Assembly: GCF_036971445.1 (NCBI RefSeq)
Contig: NC_091470.1
Location: 307,644,001-307,708,000 of the forward strand
Length of the DNA: 64,000 nt
Source of the DNA: Narcine bancroftii
Taxonomy: Eukaryota
Reading direction: 5' to 3'
A program made the translations under genes and the position numbers. Positions 10,875-62,176 of this stretch are shown here, one piece after another; positions within the stretch are counted from its first letter, which is position 1; every line of letters starts with the position of its first letter. The notes under the pieces were generated by a model. That model searched no databases, was not told the DNA's origin, and saw nothing but the letters and a program-made list of their open reading frames with translations.

Positions 10875-11154
10875 ACAAAGTACATGTACACCAAAATCTT
10901 GCTTGCTTCAGCCAAGCAGGTAGAGTACGTCTGTTTAAAAAAAAACAATCCAATATTAAATGTGAATAACTGTTAAAGCTGCATGGTAATTATTTGCTTT
11001 ATTATCACTTCAAATTACAATCCTGGTTCATTATCTATAATTTCAAGATAACTAGCCTAGAATTATAACCTTTTTGTCTGATTTTTGTTTTAAATCTTGC
11101 TTTCATGTCCTACTTCAATACCAATTTACATAAAAAACTCCTTAATCATATAGA
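10875..11154 (+). repeat. Arm 1 of a ~280-bp inverted duplication (arm 2 = 12006-12135 + 15167-15318)
   Basis: Reverse complement matches the sequence on both sides of the RTE insertion with few mismatches. Confidence 0.92.
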
Positions 11155-12135
11155 TTATTGTCAAAGTGCCTTCAAAAGATTTTCTGTATTACCTTCATGA
11201 ATTTTTGCTTAGTTTTTATTTTTGCTTTTCATTTTACCTTTGCTTCTTCTCGTGAAGAGTTTGTTTCTTTTGTCTTTGTTATGACTAGTGAATTGCTCAT
11301 TCCCAGTTTCAATTTAAAAAATTGTTCTGTGGCTTCTTGAAGTCTAAAGTGGACTATCATATCGTAATTACAGCCTATCTGTTTTTTCTTTATTTTATTT
11401 AATTTTCAATCAACATGGAATTACAAAACAAATTAAATCAAAGAAATATTACAGATATATACAATAACATAGCAAAACCAAACTCTATGTTAATATACAA
11501 AGAAGGAAGAATCAGCACATTATCACAATTATCAAATTCTGCACTATTGTTTGTAAATTCAAAATTACACACTGTGCTGATCCTTAAAAGAAAAAGAGAA
11601 CCCCTCCCCCCAAAAGGAAAAGGAGAAAAAGAAGAGGTAATTCACCCATATAATGTGACAAAATCAGCTGTTTTCCAAAAGCATTATTATCATTATGTGA
11701 TTCGTCCAGAGCTTACTTCCTCCCTTAAGGGATAAATGTCTTGACATAAACATCACGAGGGATACTGGAGATAGTGGTATTGGAGACTGGAGGGGAAATC
11801 ATCAAAGATTAACCCCCGTGTATCTTAAATACGTGTTCCATATTCTTAAAAACATGCTGTAACAGGTTGTAAGTAATCTTCTCCAGTGGAACACAACTAC
11901 ACATTTCTGACTCAGCTAGGAATCTGATTTCCAAGTAATAGCTATACACTTCCTGGCTACCGCTAAAGCAAGTTTTACAAATTTGAAATTGATATTTCAA
12001 TGGCTTCTATATGATTAAGGAGTTTTTTTTATGTAAATTGGTATTGATGTAGGACATGAAAGCAAGATTTAAAACAATAATCAGACAAAAAGGTTATAAT
12101 TTTAGGCTAGTTATCTTGAAATTATAGATAATGAA

Positions 12136-15100: not shown

Positions 15101-15156
15101 GTGGACTTTTACCCCCTCCATAAATCTTCGTCCGCGAAGCCAAGCCAGCCAAAAAA
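12136..15156 (+). mobile_element. RTE-clade (BovB-like) LINE, 5'-truncated, with inverted 5' part (12136-12688 antisense); TSD AGATAATGAA
   Basis: Antisense APE endonuclease (SVYAPT, LGDFNARVG, TDHRLV); sense RT (FVDLTKAFDTV, GVKQGCVLAP, LLFADD); TSD at 12126-12135 and 15157-15166. Confidence 0.95.
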
Positions 15157-15178
15157 AGATAATGAACCAGGATCGTAA
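13424..15178 (+). CDS. RTE LINE reverse transcriptase ORF (partial; frameshifts near 13040 and ~15010)
   Basis: 584-aa ORF with a full RT domain; terminal zinc finger displaced by a small deletion relative to the copies at 21.5 and 52 kb. Confidence 0.85.
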   Translation: MDGIPPEVWKAGGKTLHAKLHEFFKLCWDQGKLPQDLRDATIITLYKNKGEKSDCSNYRGITLLSIAGKIFARILLNRIIPSVAENILPESQCGFRTNRGTTDMVFALRQLQEKCREQNKGLYITFVDLTKAFDTVSRKGLWQILERIGCPPKFLNMIIQLHENQQGRVRYSNELSEPFSINNGVKQGCVLAPTLFSIFFSMMLNQAMKDPNNEDAVYIRYRTDGSLFNLRRLQAHTKTQEKLVRELLFADDAALVAHSEPALQRLTSCFAETAKVFGLEVSLKKTEVLHQPASHHDYQPPHISIGHTKLKRVNQFTYLGCTISSDARIDNEIDNRLAKSNSAFGRLHKRVWKNNQLKNLTKISVYRAVVIPTLLFGSESWVLYRHHLRLLERFHQRCLRSILNIHWSAFIPNVEVLEMAEVDSIESTLLKIQLRWVGHVSRMEDHRLPKIVLYGELSTGHHDRGASKKRYKDCLKKSLGACHIDHRQWADIASNRASWRLTVWRAAISFEEDRRAHLTDKRQRRKNPTPTNHFSPAAAATVSACPASDLSATNEPAADVDFYPLHKSSSAKPSQPKKDNEPGS

Positions 15179-15744
15179 TTTGAAGTGATAATAAAGCAAA
15201 ATAATTACCATTCAGCTTTAACAGTTATTCACATTTAATATTGGAGTGTTTTTTTTAAACAGACGTACTCTACCTGCTTGGCTGAAGCAAGCAAGATTTT
15301 GGTGCATATGTACTTTGTTCTTAATCTTAGGTCTTGTATCTGCCAATTTCTCCAATAACAATTCTGGCACTTGAGGGGATCGAATTCCGGTAATTTGTTC
15401 CAGGAGTTTCCCCTAATCTTCCCAGAAGGATCTCACCTTAGGGCATGACCAGATCGAATGGAAAACGGTCTCTATATCTTGAAAGCATAATTTGGATAAT
15501 TTGGATTACAATTTATTTAATTTTTGAGGAGTAAGGTACAATTATATTGCACCAGCCTATACCTTACATTACAGACCAGAAAAATTTATCTATTTCTATA
15601 CTTAAATCTGAGTGGGAAAGTTGAGAATCACTGCTCTCGACCCAATTTTACTGAAATATTTTGCTTAAGAAAAATAGTCATTGGCCCATTTCCTGTGGAG
15701 TTATGAAACCGTACACATAACAAGTAATTTAAGTACGATTAAAA

Positions 15745-19344: not shown

Positions 19345-22300
19345 TGATAGGCCATAGACATGGACTAGACAAGTGCTATATTAATGCAGTGCTTTTATTA
19401 ACAGACTCTCAGCCACCATTATACTTGCCAGTGGGAAAGCATCACCATTTGTTATACCAGTAGGGTGGAGCATCTCTATAGCCATTGCCAATAGCAAGTA
19501 ACTCCATACATGAGAAGCAGACAGTAAAATATACCCCCCATTACATCATCACATTCACCCCCCACAAAAATCGACCAATTTTATTAAAATATTATACTGA
19601 TCAAAGCAAAAGCTGGAAAAGCAAGCAGGTTAAAAATTTCAGAGGTAAAGGGTGACAGCAGGATAATACAAACCCAGAATTAATTGGAACACAGACCAGA
19701 AAACAGGCTACAGAGATTACATTTAATACCCTTGGTAATTATGTCTACAACTAGAAATGGTCATAACACAGTCTCTGCTGAGGTTTAGAAATATGAGCAG
19801 ATCTGCACAAAGGCACTGGTGGGAGCAGAGCTTGATCTCCTAACGAAGGAGTTTTCGCACCAGCTGTGGAAGGGAGTGGAGAGCGGGAGGCAATATTGTC
19901 ACGTGGAGAGTATTGTTCCTTGGGTAACTGATTTTCTCCTGGTGGGGAGGGCAGTGAGGGTGTCAGAATAGTGGAAGGGCTAACAGACTGCAGACCAGGT
20001 GAAGCCAGGTCTCTAAGTGAAATGGTGTCCTCTCTCCCATCAGGAAAAGCAACATGAGCATACTGTGGGTTAGCATGAAACAGTTGAACACGCTCTACAA
20101 GCAGGTCAGATTTGCTGAGTCTAACGTGTTTTCTTAATAAGACTTCTTCGAGCTCAGATAGCCAAGGCCGATCCAATCTTCGACTTTCTAGGGAAAGTAA
20201 AAACACGTTGGTGAGGACTTTCATTGGTAGCTGTACAAAGCAGTGTGCAAATAGAGCGGCTGGTGTGGAAACTTTTCGACTTCAGTGCAAGAGTGATAGC
20301 TTTCCAGATTGTACCATTACCATGCTCCACCTGACCATTTCCCCACGGGTTATAGCTTGTAATACGACCAGTAGCGATTCCCCTATCAAGAAGATATCGC
20401 CTAAGTTCTGTATTTATGAAAGCTGACCCTCTGTCACTATGAATGAAGTTAGGATAACCGAAAATACTGAAAATCATATCAAGACATTTAATAACAGTAC
20501 TAGCAGAAAGACCTCAACAATGAAGACACTGTTTACATCCGGTACCGCACGGATGGCAGTCTCTTCAATCTGAGGCGCCTGAAAGCTCACACCAAGACAC
20601 AAGAGGAACTTGTCCGTGAACTACTCTTTGCAGACGATGCCGCTTTAGTTGCCCATTCAGAGCCAGCTCTCCAGCGCATGACGTCCTGTTTTGCAGAAAC
20701 TGCCAAAATGTTTGAGCTGGAAGTCAGCCTGAAGCAAACTGAGGTCCTCCATCAGCCAGCTCCCCACCATGACTACCAGCCCCCCACATCTCCATCGGGC
20801 ACACAGAACTCAAAACGGTCAACCAGTTTACCTACCTCGGCTGCACCATTTCATCTGATGCAAGGATTGAGAACGAGATAGACAACAGACTCGCCAAGGC
20901 AAATAGCGTCTTTGGAAGACTACACAAAAGAGTCTGGAAAAACAACCACCTGAAGAAATACACAAAGATCAGCATGTACAGAGCCGTTGTCATACCTACG
21001 CTCCTGTTCGGCTCTGAATTACGGGTCCTCTACCAGCATCACCTACGGCTCCTAGAACGCTTCCATCAGCGCTGTCTCTGCTCCATCCTAAACATTCATT
21101 GGAGTGACTTCATCACCAACATCGAAGTACTCGAGCTGGCAGAGTCTGCAAGCATTGAATCCACGCTGCTGAAGACCCAACTGCACTCGGTGGTCACGTC
21201 TCCAGAATGGAGGACCATCGCCTTCCCAAGATCGTGTTATATGGCGAGTTCTCCACTGGCCACCGAGACAGAGGTGCACCAAAGAAGAAGTACAAGGACT
21301 GCTTAAAGAAATCTCTTAGTGCCTGCCACATTGACCACCGCCAGTGGGCTGATATCGCCTCCAACTGTGCATCTTGGCGCCTCACAGTTCGGCGGGCAGC
21401 AATCTCCTTTGTAGAAGACCGCAGAGCCCACCTCACTGACAAAAGACAAAGGAGGAAAAACTCAACACCCAACCCCAACCAACCAATTTTCCCTTGCAAC
21501 CGCTGCAACTGTGCCTGCCTGTCCCGCATCGGACTTGTCAGTCACCAACGAGCCTGCATACCCCTCCATAAATCTTCATCCGCAAAGCCAAGCCAAAGAA
21601 AGAAAGCAGAAACATCAGCACATGGTATAGCAAAGGGAAAACTAGAGAATTCATCATATTATTGTTTGAGGGTAGTGGTCCTTTAATATCCACGCTGAGG
21701 CGTTCAAAGGGACTTGACGCCTTAATCAGCGTAGAAGTGGGAGACTTGTAATAGTGTGGTTTACACTCCGCACAGACTGCACACTCGCTAGTCAATTTTT
21801 TGATACCTTCTCGTGAATATGGCAAATTGAGGGACTTAACATAATGATAAAATCTAGTGACCCCTGGGAAACATAATTAATCATGAAGACCTTTCAAATA
21901 GTCCAGCTGCTGACTTGGACTTGGACAGGACATGGGAGAAGAGCATCTGGGGGGTGGGGTTCATTGAACTTTCCTGGGCGATAGAGTATATCGTAATCAT
22001 AAGTAGAAAGCTCAATTTGCCAATGCATGATCTTATCATTTTTAATCTTGCTCTTCAATTTAGTGTTGAACATGTAGGCAACAGATTTTGATCAGTCAAT
22101 AAATGTGAATTTCTTTCTGGCTAAAAAATGTCTCCAATAGTAAATGGATTCTACAATGACTCATGCTTCCTTTTCAATAGAGGATTGCCTGAGATCCAGC
22201 CCATGTAATGTCCGAGAGAAAAAGGCCACAGGTCTACCAGCTTGATTTAGCATAGCTACTAAGGCCTAATCAGATGTGTCAGATTCCACTTGGAATGGTA

Positions 22301-24768
22301 AATCCTCATCAGTAGCTGACATTGTCGCTTTGGCTATATCTTGTTTGATATGTTCAAAAGCACAGAGGGCTTCTTCAGACAGGGGAAAACTAGTTGTTTA
22401 AACAGTGGATGTGCCTTATCTGCATAATTCAGCACCCAATAAGCGTAAAAGGAGAAAAAAACCCAGGCAGTGCTCGAGGTACTTTTGCGTTGCAGGTTGG
22501 GGCAGCTCCATGAGTGGTCTCATTCTCTCTGGGTCAGAGCTGATTTCGCTTCTACTCACAACGTAGCCCAGTATAGCCAGGCATTTAGTGTGGTATACAC
22601 ACTTATCATTGTTAAGGGTCAGGTTCAGATCCTTGGCTACCTGGAGGAACTTCTCTAAATTACAATCGTAATCATTTAAGTCCTTGCTACATACAGTGAC
22701 ATTATCCAGATAAGGGTAGATGGCTTGCAAGTTGTGAGCGTCAACTAGCTTATCCATTTCTCTTTGGGAAACTGAAACACTGTTGGTAACTCCAAAAGGG
22801 ACCCTTTTATATTAAAATAATCTGCCATCTGCCTCAAAAGCAGTAAGCTGCCTTTCATCCTTGTGAATGGGCACCTGATGGTAGGCTGATTTCAGAACAA
22901 TTGTGGAGTATATTTTGTATTGTGCAATCTGGTTTCCCGTGTCTGAGATACGTGGCAGGGGATAAACATCCAGTTGCGTAAACCTGTTTATAGTTTGACT
23001 GTAGACCATGACCATTCTACGTTCCGCCCCGTTTTTGACAACTAATACTTGGGCACGCTAAGGACTTGTACTGGGTTTGATGATTTTTTCTCTCGATAAA
23101 TGACTAACCTTGTTCCTAATAAAGAGTCTGTCTTCTTTCCTATAGTGCCTACTCTTTGTAGCTATAGGCTTACAATCCGGGGTTAGATGGTAAAAGGACG
23201 TGGAGGTTTAATCTTAAAGGGTTGATGACCCATAAACAGCCTCTTGGGGTACCGTGATCATTGGTAGTGGGCTGTTAAATGCCAGTACAATACTTTTCAC
23301 AGGGTACTGGAAATCTAGCCCTAATATCATTGGAGTGCACAGACCGGGGAGCAGGTGTAATTTGAAATCTTTGTACTTGTTTCCCCGAACTTTCAGGGTT
23401 ATTCTGCAGCAATGTGTAACGTCTCGTTTTAGTCCATAGATATTTTATGCTTAGATGGATACAGGTTAAGATTCGGGGAGCTTGTGGTCGTAGGATGGAT
23501 ATAGCTGTCAGTACTGCCCAAATCAGACAATCAACAGGCTCCCCATTTACCTTCACCTTCATCGTGGAATGCTTCATTCTGTGGGGTTCATCTTGGTTTA
23601 TCATCATCCACGCCAGAACAGGGCCTTCCCACGACAGCGATCTGTCGGAGCGCGCCTTGTCACTGGCAGTTCCACTCACAATTTTGGAAGGTGTCAGATG
23701 AATCTTTGGCTCTCCAAGTCAACACAGCAGTCTCATGGTGGTGCCCCTGCTTATTAGCAGTGCTTGTGCACTTCTTCTTTCTTCTCTTCAAATCATGGCG
23801 TGAGCCAAATGAGGACTTTCACGCCTGGCAGGCTCTGGCCCAGTGCCCTCACTTTCTGCAATTGGCACAATCGGCTCGTTGTGCAGGGCACTGTGAGCAT
23901 ATATGCAGTGCCAATCTGTAGAAGTAGCAACTTCTGTAGCAGCCTTTACACTGTGGTTTAGTGGCACTTAGCAATGGATCATTGCTGTGGGCGGGCTTCA
24001 GGGGTGCCACTTCAGCACCTCTTTCCTTCTCAAGAGCTTTAGCGCTTTGTAGCGCAACCCTAAAGGTCTTCAATTGTTGTAGAGCAACATTAAAGGTTAG
24101 GCCCGGGGTCTCCAGTAATTGTTGTCTGATGTACCCCGACTCCAATCCACTTATGAATGCGTCCAACATTAAGGATTCTCGGTGGGCTTTGATCGTGACA
24201 GCAATGCAGGCACAGGTTCTGGATAGCCCTTTTAGTGCAAGCACAAAAGCATCTTCGCTCTCTCTGGCTTGTTGTCTTTGAGTGTGAAGTTGATGTCTTG
24301 AAAACAAAGTATTTTGTGTCATATCTCAATAGGTTCTGAGGAGATTCAGTGCATTCTGGTAGATAGCGGTCTGCCTAACCATGGCGAGCCACAAGATGGT
24401 CCATCTTCACAGCGTTTTGCACAACGTTGTTCACTTGCTTTTATGCTTCAAAACACTGGAATCAGTGGTGAAAAATTTCTCCAGCTCGGGTGGCATCTTG
24501 ATCTATCTTGAGTCTTCCAGCTTTCAGGGAAGTATCCATGATTGAGAGTCTGTTAATAAAATTGATTTGCATAGACGTGGACCAGACAAGTGTTACAGGG
24601 CTTTTATTAACAGACTCTCAGCCACCGCTATATTGGCCAGTGAGAAAGCATCTCCATCTGTTATACCAGTTGGGTGGAGCATCTCTACAGCCATAGCCAA
24701 TAGTAAGCAATTCCATACATGAGAAGCAGTCAGTATAATACAACCCCCCTCCCCATTACATCATCACA
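19345..24768 (-). mobile_element. Full-length degenerate Ty3/Gypsy retrotransposon (Mag-like), TSD GGTAC
   Basis: LTRs 24563-24768 and 19345-19553 (TG..CA); PPT at 19554-19564; gag (RQQLLE, double Zn knuckle), protease, RT (YPYLDN), RNase H and integrase (IHSDRGS) remnants; GGTAC at 19340-19344 and 24769-24773. Confidence 0.95.
20510..21604 (+). mobile_element. 5'-truncated RTE LINE nested in the Gypsy integrase, TSD AGCAGAAA
   Basis: Closely similar to 14048-15156; (AGAA)n tail; TSD 20502-20509 and 21605-21612; removing it restores PCADVSASTVIKCLDMIFSIFGYP. Confidence 0.93.
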
Positions 24769-27574: not shown

Positions 27575-30500
27575 TTGAAGTCACATATATGTAATGGCAT
27601 AGATGAAGGAGATGGACTTCAGATCCTCCTGGGAGAATAAAGTTTAAAGCCCAGAAAAATAAAGTTTTTTTCAAAAAAAATTGTTTAATTAAAGCCCCCA
27701 GAACCTACCTGCATCGTGTTGGTTATGGGTGGTAGAGGAAGAAAGGCAGCAAGAGTCAAGAAAAGAATGAGTAAAGATTCACAGAAAATGGCCTGGGCCT
27801 CAAGTTCTGAAGCCTCCAAGATCAACGCATGCAATGACAGCCTATTTGAAACCAGAAACAGCGCCACCTCCCCAGAGAACTGAAGAAGATGGTGATCCTT
27901 CTGTTCAGATCTCCTCTGAAGAATATCAGAATGTAGTGCACATGATGAATTTGATCCTGAGTAGAGACTCAGCAGCTCCACTGCTAATGGTCCTGATGGT
28001 ACTAAGGAATTACAGCTGTCAGAAATACCTGCTTTTTTGACATCAGGAAGATGAGGGTGATCAAGAAGAAACAGATGAAGGTGTAGGGGATGTGGAAGAT
28101 GAAGAAGAGGCTGAAGGAGATCCATTGGAGGCTCGAGGACAAGGGTCAACTATAAAAAGCGCTTTTCTCAATGATGAGTCATTTTCAGATTTTAAAAGGC
28201 GACATGCAGAATAGTAAAAGTGATGTAAAGGTCATTAAATAATATGGTGACATATGCTACAGAAGTTAATAAAGTTAAAGAAAAATGTTCAGAGTTGAAC
28301 TGGATATGCATATTGTCAAAAATGATGTAGATATTTGCATGGAGAGAGTTGAAAGTTCAGAATCTGTTTTGAAAAAGCAGAGAAAGGAAATGATGGAAAA
28401 AATGCATATGTTAGAAAATCCAAATAGATGAAATAAGGTTAAGATTGTTGGTATTAAAGAAGATTGTGAAGGAAGTGGTGATCCTATGGATTTTTTTCGA
28501 AATTGGATTCCTAGAGTTTTGGGAGAAGAAAATTTTCCGAATGAAATTGAGTTGGAGAGGCCCCATAGAGCCCTATGGAGGAAGCCACAGCCAACTCAAC
28601 TGTCTAGATCTATATTAATTAAATGTCTATGCTATCAAGATAAAAAAAAATTAAGATTAGCAGATCAAAAAGAAAGACAAAATATGGGACCTATGATTAT
28701 TGATGGAAATAAAATCTTTTTCTACGTGGATTTGAGTAAGGCAGTGGTGGAGAGAAGAAAATTTAATCCAGTTAAGGAGATTCTATGGAAGAAAGATTGT
28801 AAATTTATCTTCAGATATCCAGCTATACTAAAGGTATTCCTGGACAAAACTCAACCTAAGTTTTTTCTTGTGGATTGAGGAGAAGCAAGGGCTTTTGCAG
28901 AATCACTTCCTCCAATTAGGGAGGAGCAACAAGTGAGAATGGAAAGTTCAAGTCCTCATTGAGAAGGGCAAAGGGAAGTGCTGCAGATACAGCTTACACC
29001 AGAATTGCATTGATGCAGTTTTTAAGCTGTCAACATAAGATGTAGAAGGATCTGGAGTTCCAAAGTGAAACAGTTGAAATTGATGAAGACCAAGTAATGC
29101 TGATCTTGAGGCAGTGGGTGCCAGAATGTTTCCATGAACTTTGTAATTAGTTTTTTTCTTCCCGTGTGGGAGGTGGAGGAGAACAGAAATTTATCCTTTC
29201 TTGACTTATCCATGATGTGCCATTTTGTGGCAAGAGCCACAATCTGTATAGTGGAAGGGAGTAATGACGTTTGTTTTTCATTAAGCATAACTTGGAGGGG
29301 GTTTGCACTTTTTTGATGATTAATACTACATATTATATATTGTTAAATCTTTTTCTTTTCTTTTTGTTTGCAATATTTTTTCTTTGGGGCACAGACCTTT
29401 ACAGGAGCCAGTTGGGTTTGATGGGTGAGACCTGTGAGAATGGATTGAAAGAGAGTTGGGCTTAAGATAATGGATGCAAATAAATTAAAATTTCTTAATT
29501 TTAATGTTAATGAGATAAATAATACAATGAAAAGAAAAAAAAAATATTAGCTTATATGAAAAAATAAAAATGAATATTGCATTTTTGCAAGAGATTCATT
29601 TGACCGAGAAGGAACATTTAAAATTAAAAATAGATTGGGTGGGTCTAGTGGCATCTTCATCTTTTAATTCTAAAGCAAGAGTAGTAGCAATTTTAATTTA
29701 AAATAACAGGTAAAAGTTCAAGGAGTATTAATGGATATTGTTGGAAGATATATTTTGGTTCATGGTCAAATTTATTCTGAAAAATAGACACATGAGTATT
29801 TATGCACCAAATGTGGATGATAAAGATTTTATGCAGGATACATTTTTGTATTGAGCAGAATCACAGGAAAAAAAATTAATAGGGGGTGATTTTAATTGTT
29901 GTTTAGATCCTATAATGGATAAATCAATAAAAGCAGTAGTAAGAGCTAAAATGGTGAATATTATATTAAATTTAATGAAGGATTTAAATTTAATAGATAT
30001 TTGGAGAAGGCTGAATCTGAAAGGGAGAGATTACTCTCTTTACTCACACTTACATCATTCTTTTTCAAGAATAGATCTCTTTTTGATACCAGCGCAATTA
30101 CAGGGAAGAATTAAAAATGTAGAATATAAATCTAGAATATTATCTGATCATTCTCCACTTTTATTGGCATGTTCAAATCCTGAGAAAGAAGATTTACTTT
30201 ATAGGCAGAGATTTAATACTGGATTGTTGAAGAAAGTGGAGTTTTGTGATTTTATAAGAAATCAAATTCAATATTTTTAGAAATAAACTCAAATTCAGTA
30301 GATAATGAGATGCACTTAAAATGTATTTAATCAATACATGTATTGTAATACATGTATTACAAAAATGTAATAATTAAATTATTCAGTAAAAATTAAGAAA
30401 GATTATATGAAAAATAAATCAGTTGGAACAAAATATAGGAAAATTAGAAAAGGATTTTCAAAAAAAAAAGAAGAAAAATTAAAACAATTAATTAATTAAA

Positions 30501-33114
30501 ACGTTAATATACTACTACTCAGACATAGAGAACCAAAAAGATAATTTAGAGGACAAAACAGATATTATGAATTAGGAGAAAGAGCATACAAGGTTCTTGC
30601 TTGGCATCTGAAAACAGAACAAGAATCTAGAACAATTAATGCAGTTAAAAAATAGTTCAGGGCTTATTACCTAAACCACAAGAAATACACGATGCATTTA
30701 AAGAATTTTATTTGGGACTATATCAATTGGAATCAGTTCAGGATGAGGAGAAGATTAATAAGTTTTTAACTCAAATAAATGTACCCAGTTTAAATAATCA
30801 GGAACAAAGAGAGTTCAATTCCTTATTTACAACAAAAGAAGTTGGTGAAATAATGAGTTCATTACAAAGTAGTAAGTCATCTGGGGCAGATGGATTTACA
30901 AGAAATTTAAAGATCTTTTGGTACCTCTGTTTATGGAGGTGTTAAATCAAGCATTGAGGGTACATTCTTTGCCAAAGAAGGAGAGAGATTCATTAAGTCA
31001 ACATCATATAGACCAATTTCATTATTAAATGTTGATTATAGGATAGTAGCTAAAGCCTTAGTTATTAGATTGGTAAAAGTATTTACTGAAGTTAATACAT
31101 ATGGATCAAATTGGATTTGTTAAAGATCAGAAGTCTGCGGACAATGTGGCATGGTTAATTAGTCTAATACATTTAGCTCAAAAGAGAGGAAATTTAAGTG
31201 TTGCTGTGGCATTAGGTGCAGAAAAAACATTTGATAGGCTCGAATGGGATTTTGTCTTTAAAATTTTGGAGAAATACGGATTAGGATCAATATTTTTAGA
31301 TTGGGTTAAAATGTTATATCAGAATCCTAGTGCAAAGTTAGCGATTAATGGCCAGGTTTTAGCACATCTTTGGTTAACTAAATCAAATAGACAAGGTTGT
31401 TCATTCTCACCAGCTTTATTTATTTTATCAATTGAACCTTAAGCTCAATTAATAAGACAAGATTCAAGGATTCATGCATTAGGATGAATCAAGATGAATA
31501 TAAAATAAATTTGTTTGCAGATGATGTTTAGATTTATTTAACAGATCCTTTAAATTCTTTGAATCATCTTAAAATTTGATTAAAAGAGTATGGGGAAGTA
31601 TCAGGTTATAAAATTAATTGGGATAAAAGTGAAATTATGCCCTTAGTAAATGGAGATTACGCACAATGTAAGAGAGTAATTGAATTTAGATGGCCGGATG
31701 CTGGAATAAAATTTTTAGGTATCCATGTGGAATCACAGTTTAAAAATTTATTTAAATTTTTTACCACTATTAAAGAAAATAAGAGATGATTTGGAAAGAT
31801 GGATTATGTTACCTATTACTTTGATAGGTAGAGTTAATTCAGTTAAGATGAATGTATTTCCTAGAATTCAATATCTTTTTTTAATTGATTCCAATTTTGA
31901 TTCCTCAATTTTTTAAAAGAATTAAATGCTTCTATTAGGAAATTTTTGTTGAAGGGAAAGTAGCAAGGGGTTCTTTGGAAAAATTAACATGGAATTATGA
32001 ACTTGGGGGGGGGGGGAGGCGTTGCAGCTCCTTTATTATAAAGCAGCCCAGTTGTGATTTATTAGTGTAATGTATTATTTAGTTAAAATTTCAGGTTGGA
32101 TGAACATAGAACTTGATAAAACAGAAGAACCAAATCCAATCCACAATTCCATTTTCAATGGGAAGCCAATTTTTAAAGATGTAGAAACATCAGGATATTA
32201 AGATGATTTAAGTTTGTTTTGAAGCATGGAAATTTATTACTTTTGATAGAATGAAATAAAAGTTTCATGTATCTGAAAATACAAGGTTTTTGTTATCGGG
32301 TTATGAACTTTTTGCGTGAAAACTTTTGTCAAGATCTGTATTGTCAGTAGAGACAGAGGTGGAGTTATTATTGTGTAATGGAGATACGAAGAAATTTATT
32401 TCATTAATGTATAAATTGTTACAAAAGGAAGGCCATAAAATAGGGATACATAAATCAAGATAAAGATGAGAAGAGAATTTGAATAAACAAATAAATTAAT
32501 GTGAGTGAGTGGAGCTATGTAGAGAAAATATGAAAAGTATAATAAATGAGAGGTATATGTTAGTACAATATAATTTTATTCATCAGCTATATTTGACACC
32601 ACAAAAGATAAACAAATTAAACCGTTCTTTTTTGAATTTGTGTTTTAGATGTGGACAGGAAGTTGGCATTTTCTTGTCCTAAGATTAAATCTTTTTGGTT
32701 GGAAATTGGTAATTTATTAGAAAGAATAATTGGAATTAAATTCCCACAGGACCCAATGTTGCTTTTATTGTGTGATATTAAGGGGGTTAAACTTAAATTA
32801 AAATTGAACATGTTCCAAGTGAAATTTGTTAAAATTGTTTTGGCAATAGCTTGAAATTGTATTGCAATAACTTGGAAGTCAGATATAGATTTGAGACTGG
32901 AAAGAAGGCATACAGAAATTCAAAGTTATATAGCACTTGAAAAAAAAACATAATTTAATAGATAAATATCATACATTTTGTAAAATATGGGGCTCATATT
33001 TACAAGGTATTGGGATAAATATTTAAATGAAACTCTGATATTTCCTTTGTCCTTGGAAGTCTCCACATACTACAAGAAGTTTTATAGCATAAAGTACTTC
33101 TGTTGAAGGTCTCT

Positions 33115-33165
<51 letters not shown>

Positions 33166-33340
33166 TTCTATTTTGTCTTCTTTCCATTTTTTTTTAGGGG
33201 ATGGGGGGATAATAGAGGGGTTCTTTTTCTTTCTTTCATTTTTTCTTTCCTTGTATATATAGATACCGCATATATTTGTAATATACAATAATTGAAGTTT
33301 TTTGTGGTTATAAATTGTAAAAGATATAAATAAATTTAAA
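27575..33340 (+). mobile_element. Near full-length degenerate L1-clade LINE (ORF1 + ORF2)
   Basis: ORF1 ELERPHRAL..FRYPAILKVF; EN FLQEIHL, GGDFN, SRIDLF, LSDHSP; RT KTFDRLEW, RQGCSFSP, LFADDV; AATAAA and A tail; many stops. Start approximate. Confidence 0.9.
33115..33163. repeat. (TG)n microsatellite in the L1 3' UTR
   Basis: About 21 uninterrupted TG units. Confidence 0.95.
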
Positions 33341-33422
33341 ATCAGTTTATATACATAATTTTTATATTATACTTATGCATATATTTATTTGTATTATATG
33401 TTTGTGTGTGTGTGTACATACA

Positions 33423-51872: not shown

Positions 51873-52461
51873 TCTTCTTTCTTCTTTCTTTTTTCTTTGG
51901 CTTGGCTTCGCGGACGAAGATTTATGGAGGGGGTAAAAAGTCCACGTCAGCTGCAGACTCGTTTGTGGCTGACAAGTCCGATGCGGGACAGGCAGACACG
52001 ATTGCAGCGGTTGCAGGGGAAAATTGGTTGGTTGGGGTTGGGTGTTGGGTTTTTCCTCCTTTGCCTTTTGTCAGTGAGGTGGGCTCTGCGGTCTTCTTCA
52101 AAGGAGGTTGCTGCCCGCCAAACTGTGAGGCGCCAAGATGCACGGTTTGAGGCGTTATCAGCCCACTGGCGGTGGTCAATGTGGCAGGCACCAAGAGATT
52201 TCTTTAGGCAGTCCTTGTACCTTTTCTTTGGTGCACCTCTGTCACGGTGGCCAGTGGAGAGCTCGCCATATAACACGATCTTGGGAAGGCGATGGTCCTC
52301 CATTCTGGAGACGTGACCCATCCAGCGCAGCTGGATCTTCAGCAGCATGGACTCGATGCTGTCGACCTCTGCCATCTCGAGTACTTCGACGTTAGGGATG
52401 TAAGCGCTCCAATGGATGTTGAGGATGGAGCGGAGACAACGCTGGTGGAAGCGTTCTAGGA
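51873..52461 (-). mobile_element. 5'-truncated RTE LINE (third copy)
   Basis: Intact C-terminus ...NPNQPIFPCNRCNRVCLSRIGLVSHKRVCS*; (AAGA)n tail. Confidence 0.93.
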
Positions 52462-53033: not shown

Positions 53034-54730
53034 TCTGGCGACCCATGGCAGCAGCGATTGAGCTGGTGCTCCAGGCGCCGACTGCAACCAAAGACCAGCA
53101 GACCGCGCAGCGGCACTGGCTCCAACAAGCGAACCGATGGGTGAACAGCAAGGGCAGCTTAAAGCCCAGTGACCCCAAAATGGTGTTGGCCTTGCTGTGC
53201 AGCTACAGGAACAGCATGTGGAGAAGAAGGGCATTGTTAAGGAGGAAGCCCACTTTTCTTATGCATGTTGTGACATCAGCCAAGGGGGGGGGGGGGGGGG
53301 CACAGCTGGAACAGTGCAAGTATAAAAGTCGGACCTGAGCCCTAATATAACTCAGAGCTTTACTTGACTACACTACATGCGTGTCTTCTTTCGAGTAGCG
53401 CGCTGCTACAGTTGGTGACCCTGACAGTTTAGACGGCATCTAAACCCAGTGAATAGGCAGCAGTAACACGGTCACTCTCATGCTGCCGACCTTCTGGACA
53501 AATCGACGACACGTGTGGTTTGACCAGGTTGAGGCACATTTCCAGATCCGGCAGATCGCAGCAGAATCCACCCGGTACTACCATGTGGTGAGCTCCCTGG
53601 AACAGGACACAGCAGGCCGGGTGGCCAACTTCATCTAGGAGCCCCCATTGGAAGGCGCGTATACTTCCTTCAAGGACACTGATCGAGACCTTCGGGCTCT
53701 CACAGAGTGAGAGAGGGGCATGTCTGCACCACCTTATGGGCTAGGGGATAGGCCCCTGTCAGCCCTCATGAACGAGATGCTGGCCCTCCTGGGCAAACAT
53801 GAGCCCTGCAATATGTTTGAGCAAGCATTCCTGGAGCAACTGCAGCACCCCAGGGGAGGTAATCCAGACGACCAGTGGTGTTTCTACCACCAGAGATGGG
53901 GTGCCAGAGCCCACTGGGAAACGCTGGGACCAGCCATCACTAATGGCCACGACTGCTGGCCACCAAGACAGCCTCTTGTATGTTTGGGACTGCCAGTCCG
54001 GATGACGCTTCCTCGTGAACACAGGAGCAGAGTTCAGCATCCTGCCCCCATCGGGACAGGACACCAAGAACAGGCAGTCAGGCCCCCACGCCGAGGGCTG
54101 CTAACAACAGCATGATTCGGACCTACGGTATCTGCAAGGTCCAACTGCAGTTGGGAAGCAGCCTCTTCTCATGGGTGTTCACGGGAGCTGCAGTGGAACA
54201 CCTGCTCTTTGCAACAGGCTTCCTGTGCTCCCACAGCCTGCTAGTGGACCTCTAGGGAATGAGATTGGTCCAAGCCAAGACTTTTCAAACCATCAAAGAC
54301 GCCAGGCTCCCAGCACTCCACCTGGACTCCGTACAGAGATTGGACAATGAGTACGCCAGAGTCCTGACCTAGTTCCCTGCGGTGCTCACCCCCCAATTCA
54401 CCACAGTGATGCCCTGTCATGGAGTACAGCACCACATCCTGACCTAAGCTGCTCCACCCAAGGGCAAAACACCTTACTTTGGAGAACCTCCAGCTGGCGA
54501 AGGAGGAATTCAGGGAGCTGGAGGAGCTCGGCATCGTACAGCGGTCAGACAGTCAATGGGGTTCTCCCCTGCACATGGTACCCAAAGCAACTGGGGGCTG
54601 AAGACCATGCGGTGACTACTGCCGGCTCAATGAGGCCACAACACCGGATTGGTACACCGTGCTGCACATCCAGGACTTCACGGCTAACATGCACGGGACA
54701 AGGATCTTCAAGATGGACCTCATGCAGGGA
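53034..54730 (+). mobile_element. CsRn1-like Gypsy 5' half (LTR 53034-53410, PBS, gag, protease, start of RT), truncated by L1
   Basis: LTR ends gctaCA, then gt-TGGTGACCC (tRNA-Trp-type PBS); gag LPTFW..WFDQVEAHFQIRQI..TRYYHVV; RT PLHMVPK..RPCGDY.RLN..KMDL. Confidence 0.88.
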
Positions 54731-57700
54731 TATTGAAGGCTGAATATAAGAGTAGGATTTTGTCTGATCATTCTTTATTATTAATAACATGTACTGGTTC
54801 AGAGAGAATTGATAATACCCATCGATTGAGATTTAATTCTTTGTTATTGAAAAATGTAGAATTTTGTAATTTTATGAGATCAAATACAGTTCTTTTTGAG
54901 AATAAATGTGGATTCAGTTAACAGTAAATTTGTTTTATGGACTGCTTAAAAAGCATATTTGAGGTGACAAATTATTAGTTTTACTGCTAAAATTAAGAAA
55001 ACATATAGCTGATGTAACTAAATTAGAGAAGGAGATAGAGATATTAGAAAAAGATTTACAGCAAAATTCAATGGAAATTAAGAAAATGTGTTTAACTAAT
55101 ATGAAGTTACGATATAATTCCTTACAAACATCAATTTGAGTAGTTACTACAGAGAACTAGACAAAGATATTAAGAATTAGGTGAAAGAGCTCATAAAGTA
55201 TTAGCTTGGCAGTTAAAAACAGAACAAGTTTCTAGAACAATAAATGTTATAATGGATAAATCAATGATTGCAAATAAACCTCAGGAAATTAATGATGTAT
55301 TTAGAAATTTTATGAAAAATTATATACTTTTGAAGTAGTGGAGGATGAGGTTAAAATTGATAATTTTTAAAATCTGATCTGGATTTACCCTTTTTGAGTG
55401 GTAAGGATATTAAAGATTTAGGTGCTTCTTTTACTGCTAAAGAAGTAATAGATGCATGTGGCGGCCCGCAATTGCGGAGATCGGGCTGGCACATCGCACA
55501 GCAGCAGACGCGGTCAGAGATTGCTGAAGCGACTCCCAGGACAATGAACCGGCAGGGGTAGAAGCTGGGGCAGCATCAGACCAACAACCCTAAAATGGCA
55601 TTGGTCAAACTGCCCAGCTAACTCAGCAGAAACAGCCTGGGGAAGAAGGGAATTCATATGCATGGATGTTCCCACCCCCTATTGTTATTCATATGTCTGA
55701 CTCAGTCATTCAGTAAAAACAGTGTGAGCTTGAACAGTATAAAAGCAGCCTTTCCAGTCCTAATAAATGGGTGAGCTTAACCTGCCACACTGCGTATTGG
55801 TCGGCTACATGGACTTTGATCCATGCCAAATGGGAAGTCTCCATGGGATGATGGCTTTACTTGTGAATTTTATAAAAATTTTCAGGATTTATTGATTCCA
55901 TTATTGATGGCGACAAAAGTTCACTCTTTTCCGGATTCTTTTGCTCAAACAATTATTAGTTATTCTTAAGAAAGATAGGTACCCATTGAAAGCTGTGTCT
56001 TATAGACCAATTTTATTATTAAATTTTGATTATAAAATTGGAGCAAAGGTTCTAGTTAATAGGTTGGCTAAATATTTACCAGAAATTAATTTAGATCAGG
56101 CGGGTTTTATTAAAAATCATTATTCGGCAGATAATATTGTGAAGTTGAATTCTTTAATAAGCACTTTTTGGAAAGATCCAACCTACCAATGGTTATTTAT
56201 TGGATGCAGAAAAGGCCTTTGATAGAGTAGAGTGGAGTTTTTTTATTTAAAGTTTTAGAGAAATTTAAATTTGGCCCTTTTTTAATAGGTTGGATTAAGG
56301 CTTTCTATAGAAGCCCCACTGCTAGAGTTGTGATAAATGGACAGTTATCTTCACCTTTTATGTTGACTAGACAAGACTATCCTTTGTCACCAGCTCTATT
56401 TGCATTAGTTATTGAACTTTGCCTCAGATGATTAGACTAGATATTAATATTAAAGGTATTAAGGTGAAATCTGATGAATTTGAAATTAATTTTTTTGCAG
56501 CTTATGTTTTGATATATTTAACAGAACCTCAGAATTCTTTGAGGTGTTTACAGGACAGATTGGAACAGTATGGTGAGATATCAGGTTATAAAATTAATTG
56601 GGAAATGAGTGAGATTATTCTTTTTGTAGTCGTATTGTGAAATTCAAATGGTCAGATCAAATTAAGTATTTAGGTGTTAAGGTAGATTGTAATTATAGTT
56701 ATATATATGAATTAAATTATTTGTCATTATTGTCTAAAATTAAACATGATTTGAATTGATGAAAAGATTTACTGATTATATTAATTGGAAGAGTTGATTG
56801 TATTAAAATGAATATTTTTCCTTGAATTCAGTATTTTTTTTCAATCTATTGCTTGTAAGATTCCTCAAATTTTTTTTTTAAGGATTTAAATGCTTTGTTG
56901 AGGAAATTTTTGTGGAAGGATAAAATGTTAAGGGTATATTTCCAAAAATTAACTTGGAAATATGAATTAGGAGGTTTGCAACTCCCTAATTTTCAAAATT
57001 ATTATGATGCAGCACAATTGAAATTTATTAATAGGATGTTTGAAACAGATAAACTCTTGATACCGGCTTATTTTGAATTATCTCAAATTGATGAGAAAAT
57101 GATGGATCAGTTTATTTATAGATGGAATACTAAGTTATTGAGTAATTATAATTTGCCTGTTAAAAAACATTTAATGAACATATAAAAAAATAAAGTTATT
57201 GGTACCCAAGGTAAGATTTCAGGTAAAACTCCTTTGTATCAAAATAGAATTTCCCCCTTTACACTTAAAATCAGCTTTTGAAATTATGGGATTGAAAGGG
57301 TATTAAATTGGTGCAAGATTGTTATGAAGCAGGATATTTTATTTCTTTTCAAGAATGAAAGAGAAATATGATACATCAAATACTCATTTTTCTTATTATC
57401 AAATTAAAGCTTGATTGTTGGATAATTTTGGACATACTTTACAGTTACCTAGATGGTCTAAGTTTGAAATTTTACTTACTGAGGGTGATAAGAAGGGATT
57501 TCTAACTGAGATGTATGCTTTATTACAGAATAAAATGCCTAAATTGAATTTACATAAATCTAGATTGAAATGGGAGAAAAATTTAGGTATATGTATTTCT
57601 CAGGATGACTTGATGAATTTATGTAGGGATAGTATGACTAAAATTGTAAATGTAAGGTATCAATTAGTTCATTATAATTTAATTCATCAATTATATTTAT

Positions 57701-58391
57701 CTCCTGAAAAATTAAGGAGATATAATTTTATTTATTCAGATTTATGTTTTAGATGTCATGAGGATGAAAGTTCTTTTTTACATTCTACTTGGTCATGTGA
57801 AACAGTAAAATCTTTTTGGAATAGACTCAAGGAATTTTCAGAAGTTATTCTAAAAGTGAAATTTTCATTAGACCCTTTTGTATTTTTGTTGGGTAATATT
57901 AAGAGGTTGAGTTTAGAATTAAGATTAAATAGATTTCAAATTGCATTTTTGAGATTGGCATTAGCTGTAGCTAGAAAATGTTTGGCAATTACTTGGAAAA
58001 ATTAAACTGATTTGAGTATTCAGAGATGACATACAGAATTGAGGACGTATTCTATTGGAGAAGATAATACATAATTTGTGTGTAATTCTTTTCAAATTGG
58101 AAAACTTGGAGCCCCTATTTGGATTATATGGGGTTGAATTTTAAATCCTTCTGCCGCAGTGTTACTCCAAACCATGGGAATTAGTTGATGAATTTTGTTG
58201 ATATGGGTGATCTCCTTTTTTCTTCCTTTTGGGGTAGGTTAGAGGGGGTGGGTTATGGAAGGGGGTGGAGGGTTGTAGGGGGTTAGTTTTAAAATATCAT
58301 GCATGTATTGTTTTTGAATTGTTTCTGTTTTATTCATTAATTATATGTTTCAAAATATGTATAATGATTTAATAAATAAAATTTAAAAAAA
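54731..58391 (+). mobile_element. 5'-truncated degenerate L1-clade LINE
   Basis: EYKSRILSDHS, SYRPILLLNFDYKI, LDAEKAFDRVEW, CFRC..FLHSTWSC, LAVARKCLAITWK; AATAAA + poly(A). Confidence 0.9.
55457..55809 (+). mobile_element. Solo LTR (CsRn1-like) nested in L1, TSD TGCA/TGGA
   Basis: TGTGGCGGCCCGC...GGCTACA; removal restores L1 frame EVIDAL.SMPNGKSP. Confidence 0.85.
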
Positions 58392-58579
58392 TAGATAAGT
58401 CCAATGCAAACTTTCCAACTGATTATTTAATTCAATTGCAGTTCATTTTTTTCTGTAACATTTTATCTTTAAATATATTGAACAATCAACAACCATACAA
58501 AATATACAACGTTAAGAAAACCCACCCTTCCACCCTCTCCCCCTGTGTCAGTCCAATTAAACAGAGAAAAAAATATCCC

Positions 58580-61466
58580 GGGGGGTGTGGCAAGATGGCG
58601 CAACTCTTTGGTGTTGTTTTGTCTTTAAATGCCCATTAAAATCTTTTCAAGGTTAGATATAGTTAGAGCTGTTAAACTAGTTTCCAATGGTACAATTGTT
58701 GAAAAAAAAGCAAGAAAAAAACGGCAACAGATTGTTAAGAAATTACATTTTCTGAAGATATCAGAGCCTACTTGTTTACAAGAAGCCAGGACTCAACGTG
58801 GAATGGATTCAGGAGGAGAAGCACAGGAATCAGCAGCGGAGCTCTGTTTTCTGCCGGTAGGGCTCTCTAAAAATGGCACCCGGCAGCCCTTCGAACAAAG
58901 GGCTAGCCAGGTGCATGTATTTCAGTCAATGCCCGCTATGAGCGCTGTCACAGAGCCTTTGACAGCTGAAACAGCTGGGAAGCTGCCAGCTGAAGGCTTG
59001 CAGTTAAAGGGACGTCCACTGACTGATGTAGTGGTGGCGCTGCGAAGTGCACCACCTGAAATGAAGATTCCTATAGACCTCGATGTGTCGGAGATGCTTG
59101 ACAGAATATGGCTTGGGGATAACCCTCGCCATCAACCTCCAAATATTACTGGGGAGGTTATGGCGGGGGTTTCTACACGAAGTCACACTACAAGGAAAGC
59201 AGTTAAATTAAGGGAGGGAATACAAGACCTTTTGGCTATTCAGAAACAACTGGACCCTACTGTGTCTGAATCTACTTCAGTGGATAAGTTTCTTAAGAAT
59301 CTTGAATCTAAGTTAACTGCTATATTGAAAGAATTTGTTAAAGCTTTAGATCAACTTGATACTAAACTTACTACCTTGGTGGATATTAATGCTCAACAGA
59401 TGGCTGATTATGGAGCTTTTAAGCTTAAAACGAGTGAAAGACTTGATTTTTGTGACCAAGGTTTAGTTGAGGTACAAGATCAATTACAAGGTGTCAATAA
59501 AACAGTTGAAACTTTACAAATTCAGAATAAAAATTTAATGAAAAGGGTTGATTATTTGGAGAATCAATCCAGACGGAATAACATAAAAATTGTTGGTTTA
59601 CCAGAAGATATGGAAGGATCAGATCCAAGAAAATTCTTTACTGAGCGGATTCCACAAGTATTAGGAGAAGATAAGTTCCCGGAAGGCTTAATACTGGAAC
59701 GTGCACATAGACCTTTGAGAAGAAAGCCTTCTTTTGGACAAAAGCCACGACCTGTTTTGGTTCGTTGTTTAAATTATTATGATAGAGAGACAATTTTGCA
59801 TGTGGCCATAAGAAGTGCACAACAAAGAAGATTTCCTTTGATGGTTCAGAATAATCGTGTTTTTTTAAATCCGGATTTGAGTCAAGAAGTTATGGCTCAA
59901 CGACGTGAATTTAATTCTGTGAAAGAAGTGTTGTGGAAAAAAGGTTATAAAGCAACATTTAGATATCCTGCGGTACTGAAGATTTTTCAAGATGGTTACC
60001 AATCAAAATTTTTTGATGATCCTAAGGAAGCTATGGATTTTGCTCAATCGTTACCAATTATACAATTTCAGGAAAGACGTAGTCCTCCACGGTCTCCAAA
60101 GAGAGTGGAGATACAAGATGGGAATTGAATTCCAAGGAGAAATGGAAATAATGGTGGTCGAAGTGATAAAGTTGATTAAAAAATGCTAAAAATAAATTTT
60201 TTTTTCTCTCTTTGAGAAAATTTTAAATAATGATGATAGTTTATGTGAAACGTGAGTTGGGAGAGGGAGCTGGGTGGGCACTATTTTCCAGAAGTCATCA
60301 GCTACGTGTGAGTTATCTCACACCCGATATTGTGTGGGAGTTACCGCAATGAGCGGTTGACCCAGGAGGAGGTAGCAGTTGCCTCCTGCCTGGTTTTTTT
60401 TTCTTATTAATTTTTGGATTGAGGAGTGAAGGTTTTTTTTATTATTTTTAATTTTTTTAAATATTTTTTTTGTAGTTTTAGGAGGGGATAAGGGGAGGGA
60501 ATTTTTTTTTCTTTTCTTTTTTTTGTGTGTTCTTTTAAGTAATGTTTAAATTTAAATTTTTTTTTTAATACTTAAGGTTTTAATTTATTAAGTATAAGAA
60601 AGTATTTGCTTGTTTAAAAAATTAAAAGTTGATGTGATTTTTTTGTAAAGTTTATTTAGTAGATAAGGAATATTTGAAATTTAAATCTGAATGGGATGGA
60701 TAAGCTTTTTATTTTATATTTAACTTCAAGGTGAAACGAGTGGTAATTCTGGTGTAAATTATTTTATTATCTTAGTTACAGAACGAAGGGAACAATGGTG
60801 AAAGTTATAAATTGAATTGTACAATTCTTAATAAGGCTTGAATTTTGTTTGTTGTTTATGCTTCATTTGTTGAGGATATAGTTTTTGTTGTAGATGTGTT
60901 TTTATTATTTGGATATGTGAATTTTAAAGTAATGATTGGGGATATTTAAATGTGGTATTGGAGCTTTTATTGGATAAGTATTCAAGAGCAAAAGGGAAAA
61001 ATGGTGGAAGAGTACTAAAATTGAATTGTATAATGCTTAATGAGGTTTGGATTTTGTTTTAAGATGGTGGTTTATGTGACTAATATGATGATAGATGTGA
61101 AGTTAGTTGATATTTGGTGAAGATTTATTTTTATAGAGAATGTTTTTTTTATCTTTTTTTCTCATGCTACAATTCTTTTTTAAGAATTGATTATTGTTTA
61201 ATGTTTTTGTTTTTTTGTAAGTGGGTTTTTTTCTCTTACATATATTACTAATCATTAATCCTTCACTCTTTATTGTGGGGGGGAGAAGGAGGGGGGGTTG
61301 GATTAATTTGAGTCGGTTTATTAATGTTGTGTAATAATTATTGGGGGGGTAATAGTTTGTTTAGATTACTGATGTTGTATTGTAATTTCATTATTTCATT
61401 TTTAAATTTTTTATGTAATCTTATATCTTATCATGTTATAAAATCTTAAATAAAGTTTAAAAAAAA
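58580..61466 (+). mobile_element. ORF1-only non-autonomous L1 derivative (HAL1-like), 15-bp TSD AGAAAAAAATATCCC
   Basis: Starts ggggggtgtggcaagatggcg; intact ORF1; vestigial endonuclease, no RT; AATAAA + poly(A); TSD 58565-58579 and 61467-61481. Confidence 0.92.
58629..60128 (+). CDS. L1-type ORF1p (coiled coil + RRM + CTD), uninterrupted 499 aa
   Basis: LENQSRRNNIKIVGLPE, LERAHRPL, PRPVLVR, PDLSQE, FRYPAVLKI; true start codon uncertain. Confidence 0.88.
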   Translation: MPIKIFSRLDIVRAVKLVSNGTIVEKKARKKRQQIVKKLHFLKISEPTCLQEARTQRGMDSGGEAQESAAELCFLPVGLSKNGTRQPFEQRASQVHVFQSMPAMSAVTEPLTAETAGKLPAEGLQLKGRPLTDVVVALRSAPPEMKIPIDLDVSEMLDRIWLGDNPRHQPPNITGEVMAGVSTRSHTTRKAVKLREGIQDLLAIQKQLDPTVSESTSVDKFLKNLESKLTAILKEFVKALDQLDTKLTTLVDINAQQMADYGAFKLKTSERLDFCDQGLVEVQDQLQGVNKTVETLQIQNKNLMKRVDYLENQSRRNNIKIVGLPEDMEGSDPRKFFTERIPQVLGEDKFPEGLILERAHRPLRRKPSFGQKPRPVLVRCLNYYDRETILHVAIRSAQQRRFPLMVQNNRVFLNPDLSQEVMAQRREFNSVKEVLWKKGYKATFRYPAVLKIFQDGYQSKFFDDPKEAMDFAQSLPIIQFQERRSPPRSPKRVEIQDGN

Positions 61467-62176
61467 AGAAAAAAATATCCCATTGTCAGTGTGCATAGTA
61501 AAACACATCGACATGATAGTTCCACAGTGTTATAATCTTTACTGAGATCTATTGGCTAGACAGTAGCAATTGTACCCAATGGTGCCGCCAGTGAGGTACG
61601 TATATGTTCTAAATAAGGCTGCCAGAATTTTAGAAAAGTGTTATATCCCCTCCTAAGACTGTTTGTGACCTTTTTAAGTGGAATGTGGGTGTTCATTTCT
61701 GAAGACCACCTATCAATGAGGGAATCAGATTTCCATGTTACTGCTATACATTTCCTGGCCACACATTAGGCAATTTCTGTGAATTTAGTTTGGAAATTAG
61801 TTGGCAATTTACCAACACTAATAAAGTTCCCCAAAAGACAAAACGATGAATCTACTGGGAAGTGACTCCTGTCACCATAGTTAGGATGTCACAAAGGTCA
61901 TACCAGAAGAGACTCACCTTTGAACAGAGTCAGGTGGAATGTTAGAAGGAACCAACCTCTGTATCACACATCTCTAATTGCAATTACATGTTATTAAATG
62001 TCATTTGGGTGCTTTCTTTTGCAGGAAAATGTTAAGTGTAATTATTGAAGCCCTGATTGATAGATCTTGTTTTTTTACTTGCATTATGGACTTTGCTGTT
62101 TTCTATTTTCATTCAAAATCACTAACAAAAATATGGTATTGCATGAATACTTGGGCATTCTCCTTTGATTCAACAG

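Follow-up and report, generated by a model that had tools for sequence, protein, structure and literature searches.

HAL1 elements of mammals are derivatives of L1 that encode only ORF1p, the product of open reading frame 1 (ORF1), their ORF2 having been deleted; they have arisen several times independently, the rat RNHAL1 being one example (PMC5753468; PMC2241872), and a logic in which ORF1p acts in cis and ORF2p in trans has been proposed for them (PMC2241872; PMC5786205). Other clades of long interspersed nuclear elements (LINEs) also contain ORF1-bearing non-autonomous members, namely HeT-A and other ORF1-only telomeric elements in the Jockey clade and Ag-Sponge in the CR1 clade (PMC5786205), and among the telomeric elements of Drosophila ORF2 has been lost dozens of times, with ORF1-only lineages able to seed new ones (bioRxiv 10.1101/2025.06.09.658640). 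Here we examine a 2.9-kb unit at positions 58565-61481 of a 64,000-nt stretch of the Narcine bancroftii genome (contig NC_091470.1, forward-strand positions 307,644,001 to 307,708,000), the whole of which we call the window and which consists of vertebrate repeat-rich DNA. We consider it quite probable that this unit belongs to a HAL1-like, ORF1-only L1 lineage that is mobilised in trans by L1 ORF2p and is independent of mammalian HAL1.

Results

A retroposed unit with L1-type ends

For reference we used two decayed L1s that lie in the window: L1A is full length (~27785-33350), and L1B is the 3′ part of an element (~54730-58391). The unit resolves into the following features.

58565..58579 (+): 5′ copy of the target-site duplication (TSD), 15 bp, matching 61467-61481
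58580..58686 (+): short 5′ untranslated region (UTR), 107 nt, with a G6 start, a YY1-type motif and an upstream open reading frame (uORF)
58629..60128 (+): open frame of 499 aa, of which residues ~26-499 are ORF1p and residues 1-25 are 5′UTR and ORF1 start in the wrong frame
58687..60128 (+): L1 ORF1 proper, ~480 codons, whose frame slips by one base at the A8 run 58702-58709 or immediately 5′ of it
60129..60179 (+): candidate former ORF1 tail, 16 codons, behind the present stop
60180..60535 (+): T-rich inter-ORF spacer, assigned by position and composition
60547..61275 (+): ruined APE endonuclease (EN) domain of ORF2, near full length, C 0.04, T 0.45
60786..60869 (+): the native one of two copies of a duplication inside the EN relic, with anchor spacing as in L1A
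60992..61078 (+): the other copy, inserted and diverged, a net +58 nt relative to L1A; the anchors are separated by 138 nt here and by 80 nt in L1A
61278..61458 (+): 3′UTR with G tracts, a T-rich stretch and AATAAA at 61449-61454, abutting the EN end
61459..61466 (+): poly(A), 8 nt, or 9 nt if the first TSD base is counted
61467..61481 (+): 3′ copy of the TSD, pairing with the 5′ copy

With its 5′ end, poly(A) and TSD all present, the unit is a real retroposed element, and these three hallmarks, named in the initial annotation, are borne out. The TSD copies agree at 15 of 15 bases, and a shared 15-mer occurred in none of 1619 control pairs of 40-nt windows set 2.9 kb apart. The element body opens at 58580 with six G residues, and CAAGATGGC comes next, at 58591-58599; the motif core AAGATGGC occurs four times in the window, both strands counted. 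This 5′ end, complete as had been claimed, resembles the start consensus of mammalian L1, G2-6(A/C)G2AGNCAAGATGGCGGA, which includes a YY1 site (PMC5381506), and its YY1-type sequence points to a role as promoter. At the other end the poly(A) tail is short, because just eight A residues lie between the AATAAA region and the TSD copy. The suggestion that an autonomous partner be sought by its 3′ end met with a marginal result for L1B, whose 3′UTR shows a weak likeness to that of the element (score reached by 15 of 500 shuffles), and with none for L1A, whose 3′UTR shows no likeness (351 of 500).

The 5′UTR also holds a uORF of 14 codons (58595-58639, plus strand) that begins at an ATG inside the YY1-type motif, overlaps the ATG at 58629 and leaves 47 nt between its end and the homologous start of ORF1 at 58687; it may affect the translation of ORF1.

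An open ORF1 whose start is out of frame

The 499-aa frame encodes an L1 ORF1p, with a disordered N-terminus, a coiled coil at residues 218-315, an RRM and a C-terminal domain (CTD). The predicted structure has a mean pLDDT of 72, rising above 90 in the core, and a Foldseek search with this model returned human ORF1p at E 6.6e-12, the top 11 rows all being human ORF1p. A profile built from the ORF1 alignment found L1 ORF1p as the top five matches in the PDB (best E 2.8e-34); the single protein gave a weak Pfam match (E 0.056), and its identity to human ORF1p is ~20%.

The initial annotation had described this frame as an uninterrupted ORF1. An ATG-to-stop frame of 499 aa is indeed present and ORF1 is open over ~475 codons; what does not stand is the start, since the ATG that corresponds to the start of the relatives lies at 58687 (MVQLL), in frame +1 relative to the 499-aa frame. 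Homology to the relatives crosses into the long frame at the A8 run, so that within the 499-aa frame it begins only at about residue 26. Among ten Narcine family proteins, four start with MV[QH]L, five with a later MDP and one with unrelated sequence, and the 12-residue match that precedes the slip is weak by itself (E 0.065). We rejected the ATG at 58629 as the true start because residues 1-25 lack homology and the relatives begin at the equivalent of 58687. The one-base slip may have been gained after insertion or been present at birth, or it may be an assembly error in the A run.

The stop, at 60126, may likewise lie 16 codons early, to judge from alignments beyond it: P0165 aligns through to 60155 and the tail of P0013 aligns at 60092-60163 in a shifted frame, while P0015 ends earlier.

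Within the frame, the element departs at 3 of 37 deeply conserved columns, each time with a residue that occurs in other rows, and the ten Narcine proteins used for comparison depart at 2-5 of 24-37 such columns. Where three Narcine subfamilies agree, the element departs at 15 of 113 columns, among them W340R (W in all three); leaving out each subfamily in turn, the same test gave departures of 6/104, 23/121 and 34/132 for the others. Differences between the ORF1 core and that of L1A are distributed 42/23/55% over the three codon positions, the second being lowest. This open frame sits beside an EN relic decayed by at least 7-13%; this contrast and the conserved second positions lend indirect support to the view that ORF1 may have been kept under selection after ORF2 was lost.

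What is left of ORF2

When ten segments from the two reference L1s were compared with the element, only the EN segment exceeded its shuffles: it scored 130.5, and the best of 100 shuffles scored 54.5. Three EN blocks between 60547 and 61202 each scored above all 500 shuffles, and tblastn gave E 6e-10; for the EN tail at 61242-61275, the score against L1A was reached by 1 of 1000 shuffles and that against L1B by 245 of 1000. Aligned with L1A, the relic is 68% identical over 436 nt. The alignment has 15 non-triplet gaps, but part of these are owed to the decayed L1A. It carries 16-27 stops per frame, and its longest open stretch is 46 codons. The wrecked endonuclease remnant that had been noticed earlier extends to essentially the whole EN domain.

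Neither the reverse transcriptase (RT) nor the ORF2 C-terminus has a match in the element among the segments of the two L1s, in agreement with the earlier statement that no RT is present, and the intact ORF2 with EN and RT that marks an autonomous L1 is lacking. About 2.9 kb of ORF2 is missing, because the G tract of the 3′UTR comes directly 3′ of the EN end. On the other side of the relic, the inter-ORF spacer gave no significant match to the spacer of L1A. With ORF1p present and ORF2 represented by an EN relic only, the element is an ORF1-only L1 derivative, as first proposed.

The decay of ORF2 is older than the insertion

The two copies of the internal duplication share 66 of 84 aligned bases (79%), or 76% over 108 columns. 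Their local score is 90.5, and 1000 shuffles reached no more than 69.5. Their divergence corresponds to 0.13-0.15 substitutions per site per copy (lower confidence limit 0.07-0.09). Change since insertion is far smaller: the perfect TSD and zero to two ORF1 lesions give a maximum-likelihood divergence of 0-1.3%, with a 95% upper bound of 1.3-4.1% over nine settings, and the likelihood of a 12% divergence is lower by a factor of at least 1e5. It is clear that ORF2 had decayed before this insertion took place, because post-insertion change is at most ~3% and the duplication copies differ by 21-24%. The same order of events had been argued before from an intact ORF1 and TSD beside a ruined ORF2; the duplication, the post-insertion bound and the strand bias described below make the case a stronger one.

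The insertion is young relative to L1A and L1B, with an upper bound of ~3%, and its age has no lower bound because the frame slip may date from insertion or from assembly. The earlier description of the element as recently active holds only in the sense of this bound, which may still mean millions of generations. At the epaulette shark mutation rate of 7e-10 per generation (PMC10587355), a rate that may not hold for electric rays, a divergence of 0.5% corresponds to ~7 million generations. Reconstruction of the empty site from relatives of the flanks within the window gave no informative match.

Strand-biased composition of the relic

Genomic decay in place is expected to be roughly strand-symmetric. 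The EN relic departs from L1A by C>T at 25 of 39 sites against G>A at 11 of 74 (p 3e-7), and by A>T at 39 of 171 against T>A at 8 of 152 (p 6e-6). No such directional excess appeared in the controls, which were the ORF1 core against the ORF1 of L1A (C>T 17, T>C 14), L1A against L1B, and RTE against RTE. C content is 0.04 in the relic and 0.04-0.05 at ORF1 third positions over residues 191-499; the flank has C 0.21 and G 0.19. The relic's losses of C and A are confined to its sense strand, unlike those of sequence decaying in place, and because the bias differs from the rough symmetry of such decay, the lineage in which the relic decayed was most likely transcribed and replicating. The remaining C residues of the relic show no clear pattern of editing context. 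AATAAA is absent from the relic against 0.86 expected occurrences, a count that is uninformative on selection against internal poly(A) signals.

Relatives of the element

Protein searches returned 12 matches near the length of the ORF, three shorter and one longer, none of them near-identical, and the exact protein is absent from the collection. The closest proteins are all Narcine bancroftii models, which account for 9 of the 12 matches (43-74% local identity); they are paralogues, 53-65% identical. The longer match is an ORF1 piece in a ZBTB11 model. A metagenome scan with the ORF1 alignment gave 569 pattern matches, none of which was confirmed. Shares of sequence words in sequencing runs, which we did not use as evidence, were 0.49-0.51 in four DNA runs from one sample and 0.06-0.19 in six others, among the ten runs listed, which include no RNA run.

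In a tree of 27 ORF1 cores that included other ray ORF1s, the element falls in a nine-row clade of Narcine-annotated ORF1s (support 100/99), whose sister is L1A plus one further protein (93/97). The clade comprises the element and at least four other ORF1 subfamilies; in three subfamilies, 3-4 proteins each, 91-96% identical, lie on separate contigs of N. bancroftii. This species thus holds related ORF1 subfamilies in several copies, and the element itself is known from one copy. Its placement, in a tree that holds no mammalian row, suggests an origin independent of mammalian HAL1, and descent from mammalian HAL1 is very unlikely.

Several gene models returned by the searches contain ORF1 sequence. 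In P0022 (Hemitrygon akajei) and in P0166 and P0167 (Hypanus sabinus), a TRIM RING-B-box is joined to an L1 ORF1 that is long and open. The two stingray genera share the point of entry into the ORF1 part, at 95% identity; these models are possibly a conserved fusion or domestication, or else a shared young insertion caught by annotation. Five N. bancroftii models (P0006, P0008, P0009, P0165 and P0171) carry L1 ORF1 pieces in GALNT6-like, FAM122B, GPR139, ZBTB11 and TEFM, which suggests frequent splicing into ORF1 or annotation artefacts.

Surroundings

The reference L1s and other repeats occupy the window as follows.

10875-11154, 12006-15318, 20506-21612 and 51878-52461: LINE copies, mutually 88-96% identical, one with a 584-aa RT-type ORF at 13424-15178; the LINE looks RTE-like
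19750-24320 (-) and 53400-54730 (+): broken fragments, resembling gag/pol of long terminal repeat retrotransposons by eye from translations
27785-33350 (+): L1A, with broken ORF1, EN and RT, its ORF1 in the sister group of the element's clade
54730-58391 (+): L1B, with AATAAA and a poly(A) end ~170 nt upstream of the element and an unrelated GC-richer stretch at ~55440-55800
58430-58564 (-): upstream flank of the element, resembling a reverse L1-type 3′UTR (G tract, T-rich)

The upstream flank is weakly like the 3′UTRs of L1A and L1B (scores reached by 12 and 16 of 500 shuffles, respectively), so the tail of an older L1 may have been the site of insertion.

Discussion

The reading that we favour is that of an ORF1-only lineage using the machinery of an autonomous L1. 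Under this reading, a source copy would be transcribed from the YY1-type promoter at its 5′ end, and an ORF1p trimer would package its own RNA in cis. An autonomous L1 elsewhere in that genome would then supply ORF2p in trans, and this ORF2p would carry out target-primed reverse transcription at the poly(A), leaving a 15-bp TSD; the TSD, the poly(A) and the lack of RT suggest such trans mobilisation. Over many cycles ORF1 would have been selected, and EN, as an untranslated passenger, would have drifted to a UTR-like composition.

Several points weigh against this reading. The homologous ORF1 start is out of frame in this copy, and a second copy was not seen in the window, nor was any protein above 65% identity. 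The indel rate and kappa in the divergence simulation were assumed, the duplication clock fails if the second segment is a template switch from a diverged sister RNA, and L1A is a decayed cousin and not an ancestor, so that the directions of substitution are themselves inferred.

Other histories could produce an open ORF1 next to a ruined EN. A host locus might have domesticated ORF1 in the manner of L1TD1, keeping it under host selection and letting EN decay as a 3′UTR, until one or a few retrocopies of its mRNA arose, which would account for a conserved ORF1, an old relic and a fresh TSD without any family; domestication is seen as one preserved frame amid decay (PMC4161310), and L1 ORF1 is present in many ray gene models. 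We regard this as unlikely, however, given that the four or five diverging ORF1 subfamilies, three with near-identical copies on different contigs, resemble replicating lineages, that the element uses its own L1 5′ end, and that the strong loss of C from the sense strand reaches ORF1 third positions too. A little less probable still is a one-off chimera, in which template switching or recombination joined the 5′ half of a young full L1 to an old, decayed fragment of EN and 3′UTR. The single copy seen, the rearrangement demonstrated by the internal duplication, and a spacer without detectable match to L1A would fit such an event, but the parts keep the order and spacing native to L1, the strand bias of the relic would not be expected from the decay of an old genomic fragment, and the one match from the search for longer proteins, the ORF1 piece in the ZBTB11 model, is a weak point against it as well.

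A third history, in which an ordinary full-length L1 was stripped of RT and decayed where it had inserted, with ORF1 spared by chance or selection, is the one that we find hardest to credit. ORF1 does have one frameshift, possibly an early stop, and W340R, as decay would produce; yet at 10% divergence an open ORF would occur together with a perfect TSD with a chance of 2e-9, a perfect TSD alone has a chance of 1-2% at 12-14% divergence, and the strand bias would be left unexplained. We accordingly retain the ORF1-only lineage as the best explanation of the locus.

A broader proposal is more doubtful, and we offer it tentatively: the whole Narcine ORF1 clade could be one long-lived, still-active ORF1-only radiation in which RT was lost once, with the EN passenger recording a sense-strand pressure of C>T and A>T that belongs to the retrotransposition cycle. 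Were this true, it would be the first HAL1-type radiation known in cartilaginous fish; the C>T and A>T pressure would reflect C-to-U RNA editing or RT error; and the A-richness of L1 ORF2 would be held by selection against the mutation bias of the cycle itself. Whether mutation or selection causes the strand-biased base composition of L1 is described as open in PMC7140322, and a former coding passenger of ~730 nt carried through many retrotransposition cycles would report on that bias naturally and neutrally.

ORF1-only LINEs are a known and recurrent outcome. What is new here is the host group, together with a neutral passenger that may record the mutation spectrum of retrotransposition; the element would extend the strategy of keeping ORF1 and borrowing ORF2 to cartilaginous fish, with the vestige of ORF2 still readable. 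We found no report of HAL1 in sharks or rays in the literature searched, which lay outside Repbase, subscription journals and supplements and does not establish absence from print; the available portions of PMC8535693 and PMC4455052 contain nothing on non-mammalian HAL1.

Among described systems, L1TD1 shares with the element an ORF1-derived frame kept without ORF2; it is a host gene, spliced and syntenic, in which two exons derive from ORF1 (PMC4161310), whereas the element has the hallmarks of retroposition and L1 ends. L1A, an autonomous L1 of the fish type, has the same short 5′UTR, ORF1, long T-rich spacer and EN, and its ORF1 core is 46% identical; it differs in possessing RT and the ORF2 C-terminus and in its A-rich ORF2, and is too distant to be the direct partner. 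HeT-A and Ag-Sponge belong to other LINE clades, whereas the element occupies an interstitial site and has the TSD and poly(A) of an L1. The closest parallel is with mammalian HAL1, with which the element has in common its derivation from L1, the coding of ORF1p only and the loss of ORF2 by deletion. It differs from HAL1 in that its host is a cartilaginous fish and that its ORF1 lies among the ORF1s of ray L1s, and perhaps also in keeping the whole of a ruined EN domain.

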